The notes: generated from the letters alone by a model not told the origin. Positions 13,121 through 22,399 are shown, counted from the first letter of the stretch. The stretch is 64,000 bases of DNA from Lentimicrobiaceae bacterium (GCA_028697555.1 JAQVEX010000003.1:12450-76449), one strand, 5' to 3'. A program made the numbers and translations.

Positions 13121-13708
13121 TTATTCTTCCACAAGGTTAAACGCTTTCGGATAGGTATCGTCGGTAAAAATCCAAAACAAAGGTTTGTTGCCTCTAAAAG
13201 TGCCATCTTCGTTGTATATTTCAACAACAGGACAAATACCTTTAACTTTTTTATCTATCTGCAATGTTTTTTTGTCGAAATACCACTCCTCCAAAAATCT
13301 AATTTTAGTTATGTCCTGAACCGAAATTTCCTTAATCAAAACGGTGTCAACCAACTCGTATGGCGGTTGAGCCGACATTACGCTAATAGTATCAACACGG
13401 CGAATTATGGTTTTTACGTCTTCGGCAGATAACTGTCTGTACGAAAAAATGTCGTGAGCAACAACATTCCCGTCGGTAACTTGCTTGAAAATATGTTTAA
13501 CAAATTCCTCTCTTTTTATTCCTTCTATATTGTTTATCCACCAATAGGAGTCGGCACTTACATCACATATAGGAACATCGTACTGAATACGCTTTGTTAG
13601 CTCATCGCCCACCTTATTCTTATCCGATTTGCAAGAAACAATCAGCGTTAAGCATAATGCAAACAGCGAAAATACAACAAGACCTACTTTAATATTAATT
13701 CTATTCAT
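13121..13708 (-). CDS. GldN-like lipoprotein (short paralog of GldN/PorN)
   Basis: 195 aa. Signal peptide plus lipobox (LIVSC). PPYELVDTVLIKE...EEWYFDKKTLQIDKKVKGICPVVEIYNEDGTFRGNKPLFWIF aligns with GldN at 19343-20194 (PPYDYYDTVLVEK...EDWYFDKQRSMLEVRIIGLCPVVDRFNEDGSYRGPSPMFWINF). It lacks the C-terminal ~75 aa of GldN. Confidence 0.7.
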   Translation of the reverse strand: MNRINIKVGLVVFSLFALCLTLIVSCKSDKNKVGDELTKRIQYDVPICDVSADSYWWINNIEGIKREEFVKHIFKQVTDGNVVAHDIFSYRQLSAEDVKTIIRRVDTISVMSAQPPYELVDTVLIKEISVQDITKIRFLEEWYFDKKTLQIDKKVKGICPVVEIYNEDGTFRGNKPLFWIFTDDTYPKAFNLVEE

Positions 13709-13917: not shown

Positions 13918-14103
13918 TCAATATTAGGGCTTTAAAGTCTAATCTTATAAAACATCTATCATTTTTTTACAATTATGCATTCAAGTTCTGAGTTTTTAGT
14001 TAAATTTGCAAAATAAATACAAGAAAATCTAACGAGTATTCGTTTAATATTGAAAAAGTATTAATTTAGCACGCTTTAAAACAGGAGGTCTATTACTGTA
14101 AAA

Positions 14104-15066
14104 ATGACAAACAAATCATATCTAATAATACTGTTGGTAACGACTGTAATGTTTATAGCGGGTAAGGATTCGTACTCACAGCAAGACCCCCACTTTACGC
14201 ATTACATGTTCAATAGGTCGATATATAATCCTGCAAATTTTGGTCTCTCCGATGGCATTTCGGTTGTTGGAGTTTTTCGCAATCAATGGTTAGGATTTAA
14301 AGACCCTGAGGGAAATATTGTTTCTCCTGTTACCGTAGAAGCAACTGCCGATGCTCCGATAAGGATTTTGCACGGTGGCATAGGCTTTGGAGTTATGCAA
14401 GATAAATTAGGTTTTACCTCCAATTTAGATGTGAAGCTAGGATATGCCTTTCACGCGTACATAGGCAATAATTTGTTGAGCATAGGAGCAAACGTCGACC
14501 TTAACAATGTAAGCCACGATAATTCTAAATACATTACCACCGATAACGAACCTGTTAACTTAGGTGGTAACGATAAAGGCGCTGTTGTTACCGATATGGC
14601 TGTCGGATTAATATTTAAAAATCCTAAGTACTACATTTCGCTATCATCAAACAAGGTTTTGGAAACAAAAAAAGAGTTGGAAGGACAAAGTTCCATTGCC
14701 CTGCAGAACAGAAGGCATTATTATGCTAACGTTGGTTACAACTTTACATTACCAGCCTACCCCAACTTTGTATTTATGCCAACAGCCTTAATATACAGCG
14801 ATGGAAAAGTTTTTCAAACAAATTTTATGGCAATGGCAAAATATAATAATAAAATTTGGGGCGGAGTTGGGTATCGTTTTCAAGATGCAATAAACCTTAT
14901 TATAGGAACAGAATTTAACGACATAGAAATAGGTTACGCTTTTGACATACCTATTAGTGGGCTTGGGATAAGGACATTTGGGTCGCACGAAATAATGATG
15001 AGATATTTATTTAAAATAGAAAGGCAAAAAACTAATACAGGATACAGAAATACAAGATTTTTATAA
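14104..15066 (+). CDS. porP: type IX secretion system membrane protein PorP/SprF family
   Basis: 320 aa. Signal peptide followed by the family-defining QQDPHFTHYMFNRSIYNPA motif, and a beta-barrel-like C-terminus ending in F-L. Immediately upstream of gldK, as in the porP-porKLMN arrangement. Confidence 0.85.
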   Translation: MTNKSYLIILLVTTVMFIAGKDSYSQQDPHFTHYMFNRSIYNPANFGLSDGISVVGVFRNQWLGFKDPEGNIVSPVTVEATADAPIRILHGGIGFGVMQDKLGFTSNLDVKLGYAFHAYIGNNLLSIGANVDLNNVSHDNSKYITTDNEPVNLGGNDKGAVVTDMAVGLIFKNPKYYISLSSNKVLETKKELEGQSSIALQNRRHYYANVGYNFTLPAYPNFVFMPTALIYSDGKVFQTNFMAMAKYNNKIWGGVGYRFQDAINLIIGTEFNDIEIGYAFDIPISGLGIRTFGSHEIMMRYLFKIERQKTNTGYRNTRFL

Positions 15067-15200
15067 TATTTTTTGTATCTTATAAAATAAAAAAAATATA
15101 AACTCGTTATAAGAAAGACTAAACTAAATCAGACCAACGCAAACACAATAAATTTAAGTTTTTTGCGTTGTAAAAAAACTAACTAAGAATTAAATTTTTC

Positions 15201-16562
15201 ATGATGAAGAAGCTAATATTCGTTTTATTAATAGGTATAGCTGCTTATAGCTGTAAAAACAATGGCAACGGCGAATTAATAGGAGTACAAAACAGAGGTA
15301 AATTTTTCCAACCCGATCCCTACGGAATGGCATACGTGCCAATGGGTAGCTATGCACAAGGTGCAGGCGAAGAAGATGCTTTTTATTCTTTTCAAAATAT
15401 GCCTCGTACCATAACCGTATCGGCTTTTTATATGGACGAAACGGAAATTACAAACAATGAGTATAGGCAATTTGTGTACTACGTTCGCGATTCTATTGCA
15501 AGAACATTGCTTGGCGAAATCAATCCCGAAGAATTCCTAATCTCAGAAAACAAAAAAACAGGCGAAATCTACGACCCGCCATACCTTAATTGGGAAACAA
15601 AAATTGATTTAAGAAATCAGGAGGTAGTTGAAGCTCTCGAACCATTGTACGTTCCCGAAAATGAAAGGTATTTCAGAAAAAAAGAAATTGACGCCAGAAA
15701 ATTATTCTACGAATACTATTTTGTAGATCTATTAGCAGCTTCAAAGAAAAACTTTAAGGAAACAAGCGACCCCAAAAATGCCAACTTTGCTAATAGGCAT
15801 CAAGGTATGAGAGACCGTTCGGTTTACGTTCGTAAAGAAGTTATAAACGTTTATCCCGATACTTTATCTTGGCTACACGACTACTCGTATAGCTACAACG
15901 ACCCTATTGCAAAGATGTACTTTTCGCATCCGGGCTACGATCATTATCCGGTTGTGGGAGTTAGTTGGAAACAAGCCAACGCATTTTGCGTATGGAGAAC
16001 ACGCCTGCTAGAAACGGGTATGAAAAACAGAAAAAAAGGTGCTATGCCTGCAGAGTTCCGTTTACCAACCGAGGCAGAATGGGAATGGGCAGCCAGAGGT
16101 GGAAACACATTCAGCCCTTACCCTTGGGGAGGACCTTATACACGTAACGATAAAGGCTGTTTCTTGGCTAACTTTAAACCACTTAGAGGTAATTACGTCG
16201 ACGATGGAGGAGCCAGAACAATTATAGTTGCACACTATCCGGCTAACGATTTCGGACTTTACGATATGGCAGGCAACGTTGCTGAATGGTGCGTTGATGC
16301 ATACGACGAATCGGCTACACAATTTACTTGGGATATGAACCCAACGTACCAGTACAATGCCAAAGAAGACGACCCTGCAATACTTAAAAGAAAAGTAATC
16401 AGAGGCGGCTCATGGAAAGATATTGCTTATTATCTGCAAGTTAACACCAGATCGTACGAATACCAAGATTCTGCCAAATGCTACATAGGTTTCCGTTGCG
16501 TACAAGACTTCATTGGACGTCAGAAAAACGATAACCCCGCAAAGGCATCAAGAATATACTAA
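15201..16562 (+). CDS. gldK: gliding motility/T9SS lipoprotein GldK (PorK)
   Basis: 453 aa. Lipoprotein signal (AAYSCKNN) and an FGE-sulfatase/SUMF1-like domain (VVGVSWKQANAFCVWR, LPTEAEWEWAARGG, RGGSW). Followed by gldL, gldM and gldN. Confidence 0.92.
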   Translation: MMKKLIFVLLIGIAAYSCKNNGNGELIGVQNRGKFFQPDPYGMAYVPMGSYAQGAGEEDAFYSFQNMPRTITVSAFYMDETEITNNEYRQFVYYVRDSIARTLLGEINPEEFLISENKKTGEIYDPPYLNWETKIDLRNQEVVEALEPLYVPENERYFRKKEIDARKLFYEYYFVDLLAASKKNFKETSDPKNANFANRHQGMRDRSVYVRKEVINVYPDTLSWLHDYSYSYNDPIAKMYFSHPGYDHYPVVGVSWKQANAFCVWRTRLLETGMKNRKKGAMPAEFRLPTEAEWEWAARGGNTFSPYPWGGPYTRNDKGCFLANFKPLRGNYVDDGGARTIIVAHYPANDFGLYDMAGNVAEWCVDAYDESATQFTWDMNPTYQYNAKEDDPAILKRKVIRGGSWKDIAYYLQVNTRSYEYQDSAKCYIGFRCVQDFIGRQKNDNPAKASRIY

Positions 16563-16619
16563 TAGAAAATAATCACAAATTAATAATTAATAAATAATCA
16601 ACAATTAAACATAACTAAA

Positions 16620-17693
16620 ATGGGACTACAAAGTATTGTAACAAGTAAAGGATATAAACTTTTCATGGCTAAGCTCTACGGGATAGGAGCTGCAGTAGCT
16701 ATTACAGGAGCACTTTTTAAAATTGTACACTTACCGGGAGCAAATATTATGCTTATAGCCGGTCTTTCGGCGGAGGCTATAATATTCTTTTTCTCTGCGT
16801 TCGAACCACCTTACGTTGAACCAGACTGGTCTCTGGTGTACCCGGAATTAGCAGGTATGTACGAACACATGCGTCCCACCAAAAAAGAAAAAAAAGTCAA
16901 GGATAAAGATAAAAAACAAGTAACTGCTCCAGGTGTAGCAAAAACGCCAACACAGGAACTTGACGATATGCTTACACAAGCCAAGATAGGACCGGAACTT
17001 ATCGAAAGTTTAGGAGAAGGCATGAGAAGAATGAGCGAAAATGTTAGCAAAATGTCAAATGTTACCGATTCGGCAATTACATCCGACACCTTTGTCAGAA
17101 ATGTAACCGAAGCAAGTAAATCGGCTAGCGAGCTTTCAAAATCGTACCAAAATATGGGTAGAGTGTTAGATGAAGATGCAAAAGTTACAGGAGAATTTTC
17201 TAATAGCATTAAATCGGCTGCAAGTACTGCAAGCAACTTAGCTCAAACATACGAAGAAGTTTCGGGTGCTATTAAAAAGGAAATTAATGTAGCACAAACA
17301 TTTTCAAACACAATGTCGGAAGCAGCAAATTCGGCAAATAATTTAGTACAAAAATATAATGAGTCCGCTGAATTGTTATCGAAATCAGCTGATATACTTA
17401 ATTTTAGTGCTTCCGATAGTAAAAACTACAACGAACAGCTACAAAAAATTTCAAACAACCTTGCAACGTTGAACAATATATATGAAATGCAAGTTAAGTC
17501 TGTTACATCTCAAGTTGATTCCAGCAAAGAACTTACTAACTCAGTAAGTAACTTCCTTTCAACTCTTGAAACTTCAGCCAAAAACATGGATAACTATCAA
17601 AAAGAACTTAGTGCACTTACTCAAAGAGTTGCGGCTCTTAACCAAGTGTACGGTAATATGTTATCGGCAATGAACTTCAATCCAAAAAACTAA
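16620..17693 (+). CDS. gldL: gliding motility/T9SS protein GldL (PorL), long form
   Basis: Two N-terminal TM helices with the GldL signature (KLYGIGAAVAITGALFKIVHLPGAN...AEAIIFFFSAFEP) and a conserved C-terminus (LNQVYGNMLSAMN). The cytoplasmic part is extended and repetitive. Confidence 0.9.
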   Translation: MGLQSIVTSKGYKLFMAKLYGIGAAVAITGALFKIVHLPGANIMLIAGLSAEAIIFFFSAFEPPYVEPDWSLVYPELAGMYEHMRPTKKEKKVKDKDKKQVTAPGVAKTPTQELDDMLTQAKIGPELIESLGEGMRRMSENVSKMSNVTDSAITSDTFVRNVTEASKSASELSKSYQNMGRVLDEDAKVTGEFSNSIKSAASTASNLAQTYEEVSGAIKKEINVAQTFSNTMSEAANSANNLVQKYNESAELLSKSADILNFSASDSKNYNEQLQKISNNLATLNNIYEMQVKSVTSQVDSSKELTNSVSNFLSTLETSAKNMDNYQKELSALTQRVAALNQVYGNMLSAMNFNPKN

Positions 17694-17718
17694 CAACTAA
17701 TACTTGAAAATTTAACAA

Positions 17719-19278
17719 ATGGCTGCATATAAGGAAACACCCAGACAAAAGATGATAGCAATGTTGTATCTTATACTCACTGCTATGTTGGCTCTTAATG
17801 TCTCCGTTGAACTATTGAACGCGTTTTTGATTGTCAACGAAACTATTGCCAAAACAAATGAGACTTTCGATGCAAAAACGGGAGAACTTTATACAAGATT
17901 TGAAAAATATAACTCCGATAATCCTGAAAAAGTAACCCCTTTCTGGAATAAGGCTTTAGAAGCAAAAGCTTTATCCAAAGAACTTAAAGATTATGTTAAT
18001 GAAACAAAATACGAACTTATCTCCATTGCTGAAGGAATTACAAAAGAAGAAGCTAAAACTATTGCTCTTCGCGATATTAAGAAGAAAGATAAGTACGACA
18101 CACCTACCAGATTTTTTATTGGCAACTCTAATGACGGTTCTGCCGGTAAAGCCGGAGAAATGAGAAAGAAAATTGAAAAGTACAAAGAAGATATTATGAA
18201 CTTGGTAGAGCCCGAAAAGAGAGGTATGATAAAAATTGGTTTGGATACAGAAGGTCCATTCTACGACGCAGGCAGAACACAACAAAATTGGGAAATGTAT
18301 AATTTTTATCATACCATATTGGCTGCCGACGTTGCTATATTAAACAACATTGTAGGCGAAATTCAAAATATCGAATATGACGTTGTAAACCACCTTATGG
18401 CTGAAATTGGAGCATCGGACTTTAAAATTGACCAAATAGGTGCTACGGTTGTTCCTAAGAGTCAGTACGTTTTCCAAGGCGAAAACTACGAAGCTGAAGT
18501 GTTTGTTACCGCTATGGATACCAAACAAAGCTTTTCGGCTAACATAGGTGGTGTAAGTCGTTCGAGTGAAAATGGAGTTATTAAAATCTCCCTTCCTTCA
18601 ACTTCGCCCGGACCTAAAAAAGTAACCGGAACCGTGTTTTTCAAAAAACCCGACGGAACCGACGTTACTGCTCCCGTTGAATTTGATTATATCGTCGCTC
18701 CTCCTTCATTAGCCGTTTCGGCAACCAAAATGAATGTATTTTACGTAGGTGTTGACAATCCTGTAACAATTTCGGCAGGCGGTGTTTCTCCCGATCAAAT
18801 TACCGCTACTACTAACAACGGTCAGATTGTTAGAAGCGGAAGCGACTGGATAGTCAGACCAGCAACAGCAGGAGCTTCAAAAATAACTGTAAATGCCCAA
18901 CTTGACGGTAGAGTGAAGAGTATGGGTAGCGTTGATTATAGGGTAAAATATGTGCCAAGTCCAACTGCAATGATAGCTAACATTAATGAAGGTGCTATAA
19001 CTAAGGACAGACTTATTGCCGCACGAGCTATTATCCCTAAAATGCCCGACGATTTTGAATTCGATTTATATTTCGTTATTACTTCTTTCAATTTTTCAGG
19101 AAATAGAAGGGGAGACATTATTGACTTGCCAAGTAAAGGCAATACTCTAACTCCTGAGATGATTGACTTTATTAGAAATGCCAGAACTAGAGAACAAATT
19201 ACGATCAACGATATTCAAGCCAAAGGTCCCGATGGCAGAACCAGAAGACTTACTCCAATTGTTCTAACTATACAATAA
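17719..19278 (+). CDS. gldM: gliding motility/T9SS protein GldM (PorM)
   Basis: 519 aa. N-terminal ETPRQKMIAMLYLILTAMLALNVS single TM signature of GldM, then a long periplasmic region. Confidence 0.92.
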   Translation: MAAYKETPRQKMIAMLYLILTAMLALNVSVELLNAFLIVNETIAKTNETFDAKTGELYTRFEKYNSDNPEKVTPFWNKALEAKALSKELKDYVNETKYELISIAEGITKEEAKTIALRDIKKKDKYDTPTRFFIGNSNDGSAGKAGEMRKKIEKYKEDIMNLVEPEKRGMIKIGLDTEGPFYDAGRTQQNWEMYNFYHTILAADVAILNNIVGEIQNIEYDVVNHLMAEIGASDFKIDQIGATVVPKSQYVFQGENYEAEVFVTAMDTKQSFSANIGGVSRSSENGVIKISLPSTSPGPKKVTGTVFFKKPDGTDVTAPVEFDYIVAPPSLAVSATKMNVFYVGVDNPVTISAGGVSPDQITATTNNGQIVRSGSDWIVRPATAGASKITVNAQLDGRVKSMGSVDYRVKYVPSPTAMIANINEGAITKDRLIAARAIIPKMPDDFEFDLYFVITSFNFSGNRRGDIIDLPSKGNTLTPEMIDFIRNARTREQITINDIQAKGPDGRTRRLTPIVLTIQ

Positions 19279-19342
19279 AATTAAAAAATAAAGATTTGTA
19301 ATAATATTACTAATTTTAAAATTAATAATAAAACAACAAACA

Positions 19343-20194
19343 ATGAAACAAATAATCATAATATTGGCAGCTGTACTATGCATAACTATAAGTAGTTATT
19401 CGCAGGCTATATTAAATACTCCTCCATTAGATGGAGTAATAGATAAAACGGAACGTTTCGAAAAAGAACCTGTGCCTTATGCTTATGTTCGCACATCTGA
19501 CTATGTATGGGAACGCCGTATATGGAGAACCATTGACTTCAAAGAAAAAATGAATCAAGTAATGTACTATCCCGAAGTGCCACACAACAATTGGCGTAAC
19601 TTTATAACCGTCATTATGGACGCTCTTCGTGAAGGAACACTTACCGCATACGATGCTACATCTGCAACAGACGAGTTTACAACTCCTTTAAGCTACAAAG
19701 AACTTATGGAGAGAACCGACCGTACGCAAACTGTACAGCTTCAAAGAAACTATCCTCCATACGACTACTACGATACGGTTTTGGTTGAAAAATTCAATCC
19801 TTCGCATGTTAAATCACTACGTATTAAAGAAGATTGGTATTTCGACAAACAACGTTCCATGCTTGAAGTCAGAATTATAGGTCTTTGTCCGGTAGTCGAC
19901 CGCTTTAATGAAGACGGCTCATATAGAGGTCCTTCGCCAATGTTTTGGATAAACTTTGCCGAAGCCAGACCAGTTCTTGCCAAAGCCGAAGTGTTTAACA
20001 GATTTAACGGTGCCGCTCGTATGTCGTACGATGAGTTTTTCTGGAAAAGAATGTTTTCAAGCTACATTACTAAAGTTGATAACCAGTACGACAGAAGTAT
20101 TGCCGAATACGCTACAGGTATGGATGCTGTGCTTGAATCGCAAAGAATTAAAGATGAATTGCTCAACTTTGAGCAAAACTTGTGGGAATACTAA
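19343..20194 (+). CDS. gldN: gliding motility/T9SS protein GldN (PorN)
   Basis: 283 aa. Signal peptide, conserved EDWYFDKQRS...GLCPV...FW block, last gene of the gldKLMN operon. Confidence 0.9.
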   Translation: MKQIIIILAAVLCITISSYSQAILNTPPLDGVIDKTERFEKEPVPYAYVRTSDYVWERRIWRTIDFKEKMNQVMYYPEVPHNNWRNFITVIMDALREGTLTAYDATSATDEFTTPLSYKELMERTDRTQTVQLQRNYPPYDYYDTVLVEKFNPSHVKSLRIKEDWYFDKQRSMLEVRIIGLCPVVDRFNEDGSYRGPSPMFWINFAEARPVLAKAEVFNRFNGAARMSYDEFFWKRMFSSYITKVDNQYDRSIAEYATGMDAVLESQRIKDELLNFEQNLWEY

Positions 20195-20216: not shown

Positions 20217-20245
20217 AAAAAACCGTTTTTATAACGGTTTTTTTT
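20217..20245 (+). terminator. rho-independent terminator after gldN
   Basis: AAAAAACCGTT-TTTAT-AACGGTTTTTTTT: a perfect stem followed by a T-run, 23 nt after the gldN stop. Confidence 0.8.
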
Positions 20246-20290: not shown

Positions 20291-22399
20291 ATGCAAGTAG
20301 ATTTATTAGATACTCCTATTGAATACCTTAAAGGAATTGGTCCTAAAAGGGGTAAAATACTGAGAGATGAATTGAATATCAGTACATACTACGATTTGTT
20401 GCATTATTTTCCATTCAGGCATGTTGACAAAAGCAAATTTTATAAAATAAACGAAATCCAATCCGACAACGTTTATATTCAACTGAAAGCTAAGGTAATA
20501 AAAACTGAAACCATAGGTGTTGGCAGAAAAATGCGACTTGTAGTTACGGTTGAAGACGACACCGGAAGCATTGAACTGATTTGGTTTGCAGGTATAAGAT
20601 GGGTTAAAGATAAGTTTAAAATAAACTCCGAATGGGTAATTTTTGGAAAACCCACTTATTTTAAAGGAGTGTACAACATCGCTCACCCCGAAATGGAACC
20701 TGTGAGTGAGTTCTCATTAATAAATATAGACCCTCTACAGCCAATATACTACACTTCCGAAAAAATGAAGCAACACGGCTTGGGTACAAAGCAACTAGCT
20801 AAACTAACTAAAACCCTAATCGACCAAGTTTATGCAGTAATAGGCGAAAATCTTAACAAAGACATAATAAATCGTTATAAATTTTTATCACGAAGAGATA
20901 GTCTGAAAGAAATTCACTATCCTAAAAACGAAAGAAATCTTGACAAAGCAAAAGAAAGTCTGATTTTTGAAGAACTTTTCTTTCTTCAACTCAATATCTT
21001 AAGCTACAAACATCAACGAAGCGTAAGCATAAAAGGCTTTACTTTTTCTGTTGTCGGCGATAATTTCAATTATTTTTACAGCAACCTCCTACCCTTTAAG
21101 CTAACTAATGCTCAAAAAAGAGTGATAAAAGAAATTAGAGCCGATATGCGCTCGGGTAAACAAATGAACCGACTTTTGCAAGGCGATGTCGGTAGCGGCA
21201 AAACCTTAGTCGCTCTTATGTGTATGCTTATAGCCGTCGATAATAACTTTCAGTCTTGCCTTATGGCTCCTACCGAAATTCTTGCAAACCAACACTACAA
21301 CACTATCAGCAAAATGCTAGGCGATATGAATATAAATGTTGGATTACTAACGGGAAGTAGTACGGCTTCGGAAAGAAAGAAACTACATGAAGAGTTGCAA
21401 GACGGTAGCCTACATATTATTATAGGAACACACGCACTTATTGAAGATATTGTTCAATTCAAAAACTTGGGATTTGTGGTAATAGACGAACAGCACAGGT
21501 TTGGCGTAGAACAAAGGGCAAAACTATGGAAAAAGTCGATTACTCCGCCTCACGTGCTTGTTATGACTGCCACTCCTATTCCACGTACTTTGGCAATGAC
21601 ACTTTACGGCGATTTAGATGTTTCGGTTATTGACGAATTGCCACCTGGCAGATTGCCAATAAAAACAATTGCAGCTTTTGAAAAAGACAGACAAAAGGTT
21701 TTCAGGTTTGTGAAAAAGAATATTGACGAAAAAAGGCAAGCATATATTGTTTATCCTATAATTGAAGAATCTGAAACCCTCGATTTGCGCAGTTTGTACG
21801 AAGAATTTGAAAACATAAAACAAATTTTTCCTTCGCCTAAATATTCAATAGATATGCTTCACGGCAAAATGAAACCAGCCGAAAAAGATGAAGCAATGCT
21901 AAAGTTTAAAAATGGCGAAACCGATATCATGGTCGCTACTACTGTTGTTGAAGTTGGAGTTGACGTACCTAATGCAAACATAATGGTAATTGAAAATGCC
22001 GAGCGTTTCGGACTTTCGCAATTGCATCAGCTCAGAGGCAGAGTTGGAAGAGGCAAGTACCAATCGTATTGTATACTGATATCCGATTATAGTAAACTTA
22101 GTAGCGAAGGACGCACTCGTATTCAAACCATGGTCAACTCAAACGACGGCTTTGAAATAGCAGATGTGGACTTACGTTTGAGAGGTCCGGGCGACCTTGA
22201 AGGAACAGCTCAGAGTGGAATTTTGGAACTGAAAATCGCTAATTTAGTTAGAGATGAAAGAATGTTAGTTGTTGCTAAAAATGAAGCCGACAGAGTTCTG
22301 CTATACGAAAACGGACTCAATAATCCCGAAAATATCAATATTTTAAAGCATTTTCTACTTCTAAAGAAAAAACAAAAATCTTTCTCGCAAATCAGTTAA
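20291..22399 (+). CDS. recG: ATP-dependent DNA helicase RecG
   Basis: 702 aa. Wedge/OB N-terminal region, Walker A GDVGSGKT, DEQHRFG, QLHQLRGRVGRG. Confidence 0.95.
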   Translation: MQVDLLDTPIEYLKGIGPKRGKILRDELNISTYYDLLHYFPFRHVDKSKFYKINEIQSDNVYIQLKAKVIKTETIGVGRKMRLVVTVEDDTGSIELIWFAGIRWVKDKFKINSEWVIFGKPTYFKGVYNIAHPEMEPVSEFSLINIDPLQPIYYTSEKMKQHGLGTKQLAKLTKTLIDQVYAVIGENLNKDIINRYKFLSRRDSLKEIHYPKNERNLDKAKESLIFEELFFLQLNILSYKHQRSVSIKGFTFSVVGDNFNYFYSNLLPFKLTNAQKRVIKEIRADMRSGKQMNRLLQGDVGSGKTLVALMCMLIAVDNNFQSCLMAPTEILANQHYNTISKMLGDMNINVGLLTGSSTASERKKLHEELQDGSLHIIIGTHALIEDIVQFKNLGFVVIDEQHRFGVEQRAKLWKKSITPPHVLVMTATPIPRTLAMTLYGDLDVSVIDELPPGRLPIKTIAAFEKDRQKVFRFVKKNIDEKRQAYIVYPIIEESETLDLRSLYEEFENIKQIFPSPKYSIDMLHGKMKPAEKDEAMLKFKNGETDIMVATTVVEVGVDVPNANIMVIENAERFGLSQLHQLRGRVGRGKYQSYCILISDYSKLSSEGRTRIQTMVNSNDGFEIADVDLRLRGPGDLEGTAQSGILELKIANLVRDERMLVVAKNEADRVLLYENGLNNPENINILKHFLLLKKKQKSFSQIS

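Follow-up and report, generated by a model that had tools for sequence, protein, structure and literature searches.

The 64,000-nucleotide (nt) stretch of Lentimicrobiaceae bacterium DNA analysed here (GCA_028697555.1, JAQVEX010000003.1:12450-76449; the window) contains the core genes of a type IX secretion system (T9SS), and the question raised by this locus is whether its motor protein GldL has been enlarged by duplication of its own C-terminal helix motif. This was the claim of the original prediction, which set the 357 amino acids (aa) of this GldL against about 215 aa for GldL of Flavobacterium johnsoniae and about 310 aa for PorL of Porphyromonas gingivalis, and described four to five degenerate repeats of ~30 aa in the cytoplasmic part. 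The three lengths are accurate (357 aa; 215 aa, with solved GldL chains of 212-228 aa; and 309 aa) and the repeats are real. The protein is nevertheless an ordinary member of the long class of GldL proteins and not unusually long. Its tail carries five 35-residue units of two types in the order A-A-A-B-B, and this repeat grammar is a property of the whole GldL family, not of this locus.

The repeat emerged from three kinds of comparison, all of them positive. Off-diagonal Smith-Waterman alignment of the cytoplasmic part of GldL reached a score of 155 against 50 ± 8.8 in shuffled sequences. The top ungapped diagonal was at an offset of 35 residues with a score of 117; further strong diagonals occurred at 7, 21, 28, 56, 63 and 70, all of them multiples of seven. 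In a heptad-preserving shuffle, in which residues are permuted only within the same heptad position, the best offset scored 54.8 ± 11.3 and a score of at least 117 occurred in 0 of 1000 trials; in GldL itself, the 117 at offset 35 compares with 39-76 at the other heptad multiples. Lastly, self-comparison of a 122-sequence clade profile by hhalign aligned residues 102-288 with residues 171-344 (E=4e-12). The internal repeat of 35 residues, or five heptads, is genuine and far beyond chance. The significant periodicity that had been anticipated is therefore present and the upper count of five units holds, but the period is 35 rather than ~30 aa and the units belong to two types.

Unit boundaries were anchored on the conserved residues Tyr 176, 211, 246, 288 and 344, giving the A-type units R1 to R3 and the B-type units R4 and R5 (Table 1). 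Within each type the units are closely related by hhalign (R1-R2, P=4.4e-10; R1-R3, P=1.7e-9; R2-R3, P=2.1e-9; R4-R5, P=5.2e-11), and R2 and R3 share 12 of their 35 residues. A and B units resemble each other weakly (P from 1e-4 to 5e-2, the best pair being R2-R5 with P=1e-4), with every alignment in register, and all five units end in L-x-x-x-Y. The sequence motifs by which the repeats had originally been recognized were located at residues 166, 198, 233, 279 and 337. In the 122-sequence clade alignment the near-invariant residues recur with the same period of 35, namely F158, A165, S168, A169, L172 and Y176 in R1, A200, S203, A204, L207 and Y211 in R2, and F228, A235, S238, A239, L242 and Y246 in R3, the last set matching the R1 positions at an offset of 70. 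The last unit, R5, is indeed the conserved GldL C-terminus: N341 and Y344 of its LNxVYGNMLxAM motif are near-invariant in 139 sequences (the window's GldL and 138 representatives of 50%-identity clusters), and the motif was found in all 80 of the nearest species loci. The YQNM of R1 resembles the terminal YGNM. At the DNA level, Tandem Repeats Finder and direct-repeat searches over gldL returned no meaningful repeat, so that the duplications are ancient and a recent expansion was rejected.

The length of the protein was assessed on three scales. The 120 closest protein clusters (90%-identity clusters, 57-100% identical to the window's GldL) measure 329-361 aa. In the 80 nearest loci of a GTDB species-genome scan made with a 15-sequence alignment, GldL (34-62% identity) has a median length of 341 aa, with values from 280 to 399 aa; nearly all of these loci are labelled as Bacteroidales, Lentimicrobiaceae, Marinilabiliales or Bacteroidota metagenome-assembled genomes (MAGs). 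Among the 138 representatives of the wider family the median is 290 aa; 22 sequences reach 357 aa or more, and only 15 measure 240 aa or less, which places the 215-aa GldL of F. johnsoniae near the lower limit of the family's lengths. The existence of two GldL length classes has already been noted in a review (PMC9389320). A length of 357 aa is thus normal among the nearest relatives, an outcome that the original prediction itself had named as refuting it, and the description of this GldL as unusually long was given up.

Variation in length across the family follows the number of units. Detection used separate hidden Markov models (HMMs) for A and B units. They replaced a first repeat HMM, seeded with R1-R3 and iterated over the family, which was dropped after it had narrowed to a core of 27 aa, failed to detect R5 and counted too few units (r=0.37). 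With the separate models, the architectures among the 139 sequences included ABB (39), AABB (22), AAABB (15), BB (14), AB (8), ABBB (8), AABBB (6) and AAABBB (4). The AAABB of the window's GldL is the third commonest among the representatives. A units lie nearly always N-terminal to B units, and the detected number of units ranges from 0 to 7. Median length rises from 259 aa in sequences with two units to 281, 314, 344 and 392 aa in those with three, four, five and six (r=0.65), so that unit copy number may largely account for GldL lengths from ~215 to 460 aa. The distance from the conserved LDxML motif to the terminal Tyr clusters at ~111, 156, 185, 230 and 279.

Two side observations concern the same region. 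For the 49 representatives with a recognisable LDxML and a terminal LNxxY, this distance modulo 7 is strongly biased, classes 6 and 2 holding 31 of the 49, which suggests that the tail changes length by whole heptads across the GldL family. A subset of relatives, of 388-399 aa, has a 49-residue (seven-heptad) insert directly after R4 with an extra ALNxVF.xQLQG motif, in appearance a third B-like unit, evidence that B units differ in copy number as well (P0121, P0123, P0126 and P0130, alignment A2 columns 342-390; L017, L021, L022, L026, L030, L034, L056, L061 and L072).

Comparison with solved proteins points to the source of the additional residues. The short GldLs of 212-228 aa align to residues 7-178 of the window's GldL and then to residues 264/311-354, skipping the middle. 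The B-unit profile recognizes two B units in the 215-aa GldL of F. johnsoniae (141-168 and 178-210), two in 7SAU and in 7SAZ, and one in 7SAX; a unit equivalent to R4 occurs in all solved GldL/PorL sequences but 7sax. In PorL, residues 198-225 form a clear B unit and residues 250-276 a weaker one, which with 9.5 bits is below the per-stretch threshold. The presence of two B units in a 215-aa GldL indicates that the R4/R5 duplication is ancestral to the family and represents no expansion in this organism. Compared with F. johnsoniae GldL, the window's protein is longer by ~112 residues from the LDxML helix to the first B unit, equal to three A units of 35 aa and one further heptad, by ~14 residues between the B units and by ~14 in the Lys-rich linker. 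Judged by these alignments, the extra length comes mainly from the A-unit triplet R1-R3. Against the PDB, the A-unit profile matched designed coiled coils only and no solved GldL; residues 136-164 of 7sax nonetheless align to R1. The middle region of PorL (~117-197) had no match to the A-unit profile.

The tail is predicted to be helical. AlphaFold2 modelling of GldL with the 139-sequence alignment gave a mean predicted local distance difference test score (pLDDT) of 75 and a predicted template modelling score (pTM) of 0.36. In this model, a short LDxML helix is followed by three long helices at residues 125-185, 191-260 and 269-351 that span some two units apiece, and the breaks between them (186-190 and 261-268) coincide with conserved Gly/Pro/polar-rich turns. 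For a 215-aa GldL, the prediction shows three helices with lengths of 25, 39 and 32 residues, hence a bundle of about half the length. The conserved positions of the A units (F, V/I, A, A, L and Y) follow a 4-3-4-3 spacing and include small Ala and Ser residues, as expected for the core of a tightly packed antiparallel helical assembly. Foldseek weakly matched the modelled tail to BAR-type three-helix bundles, which are elongated and antiparallel (E from 4e-3 to 7e-2, template modelling (TM) score up to 0.64), a similarity that we read as one of generic shape, not homology. As a separate observation, the best PDB matches of the A-unit profile (GldL residues 148-252, window 17061-17375) were designed antiparallel or Type-2 coiled coils, namely 8qae (sc-apCC-6-SLLA) and 6g68 (CC-Type2-IL-Sg); they reflect the Ala/Ser-rich heptad core and may hint at a multi-helix barrel or at tight antiparallel packing.

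Taken together, the reading that we favour, with a probability of roughly 65%, is that of a standard T9SS operon in a Lentimicrobiaceae-like Bacteroidales genome, encoding a long-class GldL whose A-A-A-B-B helical tail would serve as an arm of the stator. The protein comprises a membrane hairpin, a Lys-rich linker predicted as disordered, the LDxML helix and the five 35-residue units. The B-B pair with its C-terminal LNxVYGNMLxAM is ancestral, and copy number varies by lineage in heptad multiples, for A units and, among some relatives, for B units too. The repeats, their conservation and the relation of unit number to length across the family are observed, and the helices are predicted. From the structural model we infer that the three long helices of the tail, of about two units each, pack into an elongated antiparallel bundle. 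Such a bundle would act as the stator's cytoplasmic arm that keeps GldL5 from rotating, and would present the C-terminal motif to partners, e.g. the CheY-like receiver domain of PorX, or to anchors; the number of units would set the length of the arm.

This reading agrees with previous proposals. The GldL tail is unresolved in all structures determined with cryo-electron microscopy (cryo-EM); it has been proposed to hold GldL stationary via a cytoplasmic structure (10.1101/2020.05.11.089193; 10.1101/2022.01.28.478170; PMC9389320). PorX binds the cytoplasmic domain of PorL/GldL via a C-terminal patch (PMC5005315; PMC10951265), and in our alignment R5 corresponds to the PorL region adjoining this PorX-binding patch (PMC5005315).

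Several points weigh against it. The unit HMMs were trained on the clade of the window's GldL, so that units of distant GldLs are under-counted, and the correlation of unit number with length is moderate, since linkers and spacers vary too. Homology between A and B units is suggestive, given P values of 1e-4 to 5e-2, even if the alignments are in register and a single unit of short GldLs matches R1 as well as R4. The proposed fold derives from a monomer prediction of moderate confidence, with a pLDDT of ~70-80 in the tail and the pTM given above, whereas real GldL is pentameric; the tail of purified GldL is disordered or invisible in cryo-EM; and the Foldseek matches are weak and of a kind generic for long helices. 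Moreover, the link from tail length to function is a putative one.

Pentamerization is the basis of an alternative that is live, if improbable, in which the tails of all five GldL5 subunits would come together in a coiled coil or a helical barrel between subunits, and the 35-aa units would provide its heptad register. GldL is a pentamer (10.1101/2020.05.11.089193), and the designed structures best matching the A units (8qae, 6g68) comprise multi-helix barrels and Type-2 coiled coils; the core is rich in Ala and Ser. In addition, cryo-electron tomography of P. gingivalis revealed PorL/PorM-dependent cytoplasmic densities that include a ~14-nm cylinder (PMC9170169). However, the helix breaks at the conserved turns of the monomer model favour hairpins, and the tails are not ordered in purified pentamers (10.1101/2022.01.28.478170).

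Equally to be weighed, and likewise improbable, is a role of the units as multivalent docking sites, where each L-x-x-x-Y motif would bind one partner molecule, e.g. the PorX receiver domain or an anchoring protein, and the number of units, not an arm length, would set the valency. Purifying selection maintains near-invariant residues at the surface and in the core of each unit, the PorX-binding site of PorL has been mapped close to its C-terminal unit (PMC5005315), and the YQNM of R1 recalls the terminal motif. Yet the PorX patch of PorL (279-298) is situated C-terminal to the last Tyr and its sequence is missing from the internal units. The conserved 4-3-4-3 spacing is typical of a buried helix-packing core and not of a surface epitope, and the A-unit profile found its best PDB matches among designed coiled coils.

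The scenario first put forward for this locus, in which the tail underwent a lineage-specific, unusual expansion through repeated duplication of the C-terminal helix motif, is quite unlikely and already largely refuted. It draws on the 142 aa by which the protein exceeds F. johnsoniae GldL, on the shared L-x-x-x-Y ending of five out of five units, and on cross-type alignments that are in register (R2-R5, P=1e-4). The same length and architecture, however, are common to all 120 nearest clusters and to most of the 80 nearest species, AAABB ranks third among the representatives, and gldL lacks a DNA-level repeat. What survives of the scenario is that R4 is a clear copy of the C-terminal unit (P=5e-11), and the only one. 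This duplication, though, is ancestral and already found in the 215-aa GldL, while the additional length is attributable mainly to A units, which form a tight subfamily of their own and at best resemble B units with P=1e-4.

The weakest explanation, that no true duplication occurred and that the units merely reflect generic coiled-coil or low-complexity similarity in a Ser/Asn/Ala-rich helix, is highly improbable and was rejected, since despite the biased composition of the tail (37 S, 28 N and 25 A among 262 residues) and the many sub-threshold Pfam matches to coiled-coil families, heptad-preserving shuffles never attained the offset-35 score, profile-profile comparisons gave P values of ~1e-9 to 1e-11 in exact register, and the conserved residues share the period. 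The Pfam and NCBIfam candidates DUF6468, BLOC1_2, ATG17, BAR_3, MCPsignal, SMC, Rad50 and SpiroCoCo all remained below their cut-offs and were taken as coiled-coil noise. Some homologs are listed with the Pfam entry PF27335. For the BAR domain (PF16746 and relatives), the 17.9 bits of BAR_3 compare with a gathering threshold of 31.7, and for the MCP signalling domain (PF00015), 17.3 bits compare with a threshold of 34.6.

A wider proposal, which we regard as possible though rather doubtful, is that the stator tail acts as a modular ruler across the Bacteroidota: gain and loss of A and B units in heptad multiples, with A preceding B, would set the length of the arm (in proteins from ~215 to 460 aa) and hence the position of the C-terminal motif, to which PorX or an anchor binds, with respect to the membrane. 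If true, it would provide a concrete and testable handle on how GldL stays stationary. A description of the A/B repeat grammar of the GldL/PorL tail was not found in the literature searched, the coverage of which was incomplete, so that this absence is no proof of novelty. The outcome refines the description of a protein family that is already known and is no new system. Nonetheless, a tail that is invisible in cryo-EM has a clear repeat grammar, the copy number of which explains much of the length variation in the family, and this opens simple experiments on the immobilisation and regulation of the stator.

The genomic setting is conventional. The five co-oriented open reading frames (ORFs) at 14104-20194 (+) are porP-gldK-gldL-gldM-gldN, all of them above the curated Pfam and NCBIfam cut-offs (Table 1), and both the contiguity of the five genes, with exact coordinates, and the Porphyromonas-type porPKLMN layout agree with the original prediction. 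The order porP-K-L-M-N-recG recurs in a relative (L081, 60% identical, on a 2.6-Mb contig). Intergenic gaps in the block measure 134, 57, 25 and 64 nt. The hairpin downstream of gldN is a credible terminator, with a folding free energy of -10.7 kcal/mol (z -4.82; equally stable structures in 0 of 200 shuffles) and a run of eight U residues; to call it strong was generous, as its stem is A/U-rich with three GC pairs. It is the sole intergenic terminator-like site on the plus strand, which is indirect evidence that porP to gldN may be co-transcribed as a single unit. GldL is 100% identical to the NCBI entry 'MAG: gliding motility protein GldL [Lentimicrobiaceae bacterium]'. The locus, a routine T9SS core operon, already carries its annotation in public databases, and it belongs to the GldL/PorL family and to the porPKLMN-type operons by every testable criterion.

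Table 1. Genes of the T9SS operon, segments of GldL and the downstream hairpin, with positions counted from the first nucleotide of the window
Feature	Residues or length	Window position	Strand	Support
porP/sprF-family T9SS outer-membrane protein	320 aa	14104..15066	+	PF11751 194.6 bits (cut-off 22.3); TIGR03519 209.1 bits (cut-off 90.55)
gldK/porK, ring lipoprotein	453 aa	15201..16562	+	TIGR03525 GldK equivalog 565.1 bits (cut-off 350); FGE-sulfatase fold
gldL/porL, motor (stator) protein	357 aa	16620..17693	+	TIGR03513 208.8 bits (cut-off 68.3); PF22827 GldL_N 95.4 bits (cut-off 24)
GldL N-terminal two-helix membrane hairpin and cage region	19-79	16674..16856	+	GldL_N match; E52, W70
GldL Lys-rich linker KKEKKVKDKDKK	88-99	16881..16916	+	position check; predicted disordered stretch at residues 91-105
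GldL R0, conserved LDxML / IGPELIESLG helix region	113-147	16956..17060	+	precedes the repeats
GldL R1, A type, ends ...LSKSYQNMGRV	148-182	17061..17165	+	unit HMM 29.7 bits
GldL R2, A type	183-217	17166..17270	+	unit HMM 37.4 bits
GldL R3, A type	218-252	17271..17375	+	profile comparison; unit HMM; identity to R2
GldL R4, B type, YNEQLQKISNNLATLNNIYEMQ	260-294	17397..17501	+	unit HMM 54.2 bits
GldL R5, B type, conserved GldL C-terminal motif ...VAALNQVYGNMLSA	316-350	17565..17669	+	profile comparison and unit HMM
gldM/porM, motor (rotor) protein	519 aa	17719..19278	+	TIGR03517 362.5 bits (cut-off 180); four periplasmic GldM domains, 4/4 found
gldN/porN, ring subunit	283 aa	19343..20194	+	TIGR03523 248 bits (cut-off 85.9); PF19841 253.6 bits
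Intrinsic-terminator-like hairpin, 11-bp stem and 5-nt loop, then U8		20217..20243	+	RNA fold

The N-terminal part of GldL is conserved. E52 is invariant in three alignments and W70 is invariant in two of them and near-invariant in the 139-sequence set; the glutamate in the second transmembrane helix corresponds to F. johnsoniae E49, the functional role of which has been described (PMC8986121), as has the membrane-proximal cage (10.1101/2022.01.28.478170). The AlphaFold2 model places the membrane helices at residues 10-36 and 41-59 (pLDDT ~93), and by Foldseek the modelled hairpin superposes on 7sau (TM score 0.78-0.80, root-mean-square deviation (rmsd) 2.7-2.8 Å) and on 7sat (TM score 0.75-0.80, rmsd 1.7-2.2 Å). 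By orthology and the adjacent gldM, the hairpin would form with GldM the proton-conducting GldL5M2 motor. The K-rich linker that had been pointed out is found next to this region (Table 1); residues 91-105 have a pLDDT below 50 and are predicted as disordered, and the length of the linker region varies among relatives. In R0, residues L114, D115 and L118 are invariant in alignment A2. R0 does not qualify as a repeat unit, with P of at least 0.006 by hhalign against any of the units.

Some observations were made on the flanks of the operon. A recG-like helicase gene is encoded directly downstream of gldN (window 20291-22399, +), as in L081 (9681-11786), so that synteny reaches past the T9SS operon. 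Upstream, a 195-aa ORF at 13121-13708 (-), divergent from porP and with a lipoprotein-like N-terminus (...LIVSCKSD), is a truncated GldN paralog: it scores 56 bits with the Pfam GldN model (cut-off 23), falls below the NCBIfam GldN cut-off and is 33% identical to GldN residues 87-203. L081 has no such GldN-like gene upstream of porP. In the 395-nt gap between this gene and porP, the sequence TAAATTTG at window 14001-14008 (+), ~95 nt upstream of the start codon of porP, fits TAnnTTTG, the Bacteroidetes-type -7 promoter motif. A sigma-70 promoter scan yielded matches no more numerous than in shuffled sequences.

Among known systems, BAR, I-BAR and F-BAR domains (e.g. arfaptin, 1I49) resemble the modelled tail in shape, with a TM score up to 0.64 and an rmsd of 4.8 Å over ~200 columns; their sequence relationship to the GldL tail is not significant, and there is no evidence for dimerisation or a role in membrane curvature. 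The porP-porK-porL-porM-porN operon of P. gingivalis has the same five-gene order with porP upstream. Its PorL (309 aa, 7SAT), the documented PorX-binding subunit (PMC5005315), likewise possesses a long cytoplasmic tail, with B units aligning to residues 265-354 of the window's GldL. In contrast, PorL contains an N-terminal amphipathic helix and a C-terminal hydrophobic extension (279-298), both lacking in our case, and sequence similarity between the two proteins is low (95 bits). The short GldLs from F. johnsoniae (215 aa, 6YS8), 7SAU (223 aa), 7SAX (212 aa) and 7SAZ (228 aa) share the transmembrane hairpin, the glutamate of the second transmembrane helix, the cage, the LDxML helix and the terminal LNxVYGxMLxAM, are found in the same gldKLMN gene context and, in 6YS8, 7SAU and 7SAZ, contain the B-B pair. 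The window's GldL differs from them by three additional A units plus a heptad, a wider B-B spacing and a longer Lys-rich linker. Its closest counterparts are the long-class GldLs of uncultured Bacteroidales, Lentimicrobiaceae and Marinilabiliales (P0002-P0120, L001-L080), with 58-96% identity for the nearest clusters and 34-62% for the nearest species, which share the AAABB architecture, a length of 329-361 aa and the operon with recG synteny; only the linker differs, the window's GldL and its 95% identical relative having a Lys-rich linker ~10 aa longer.

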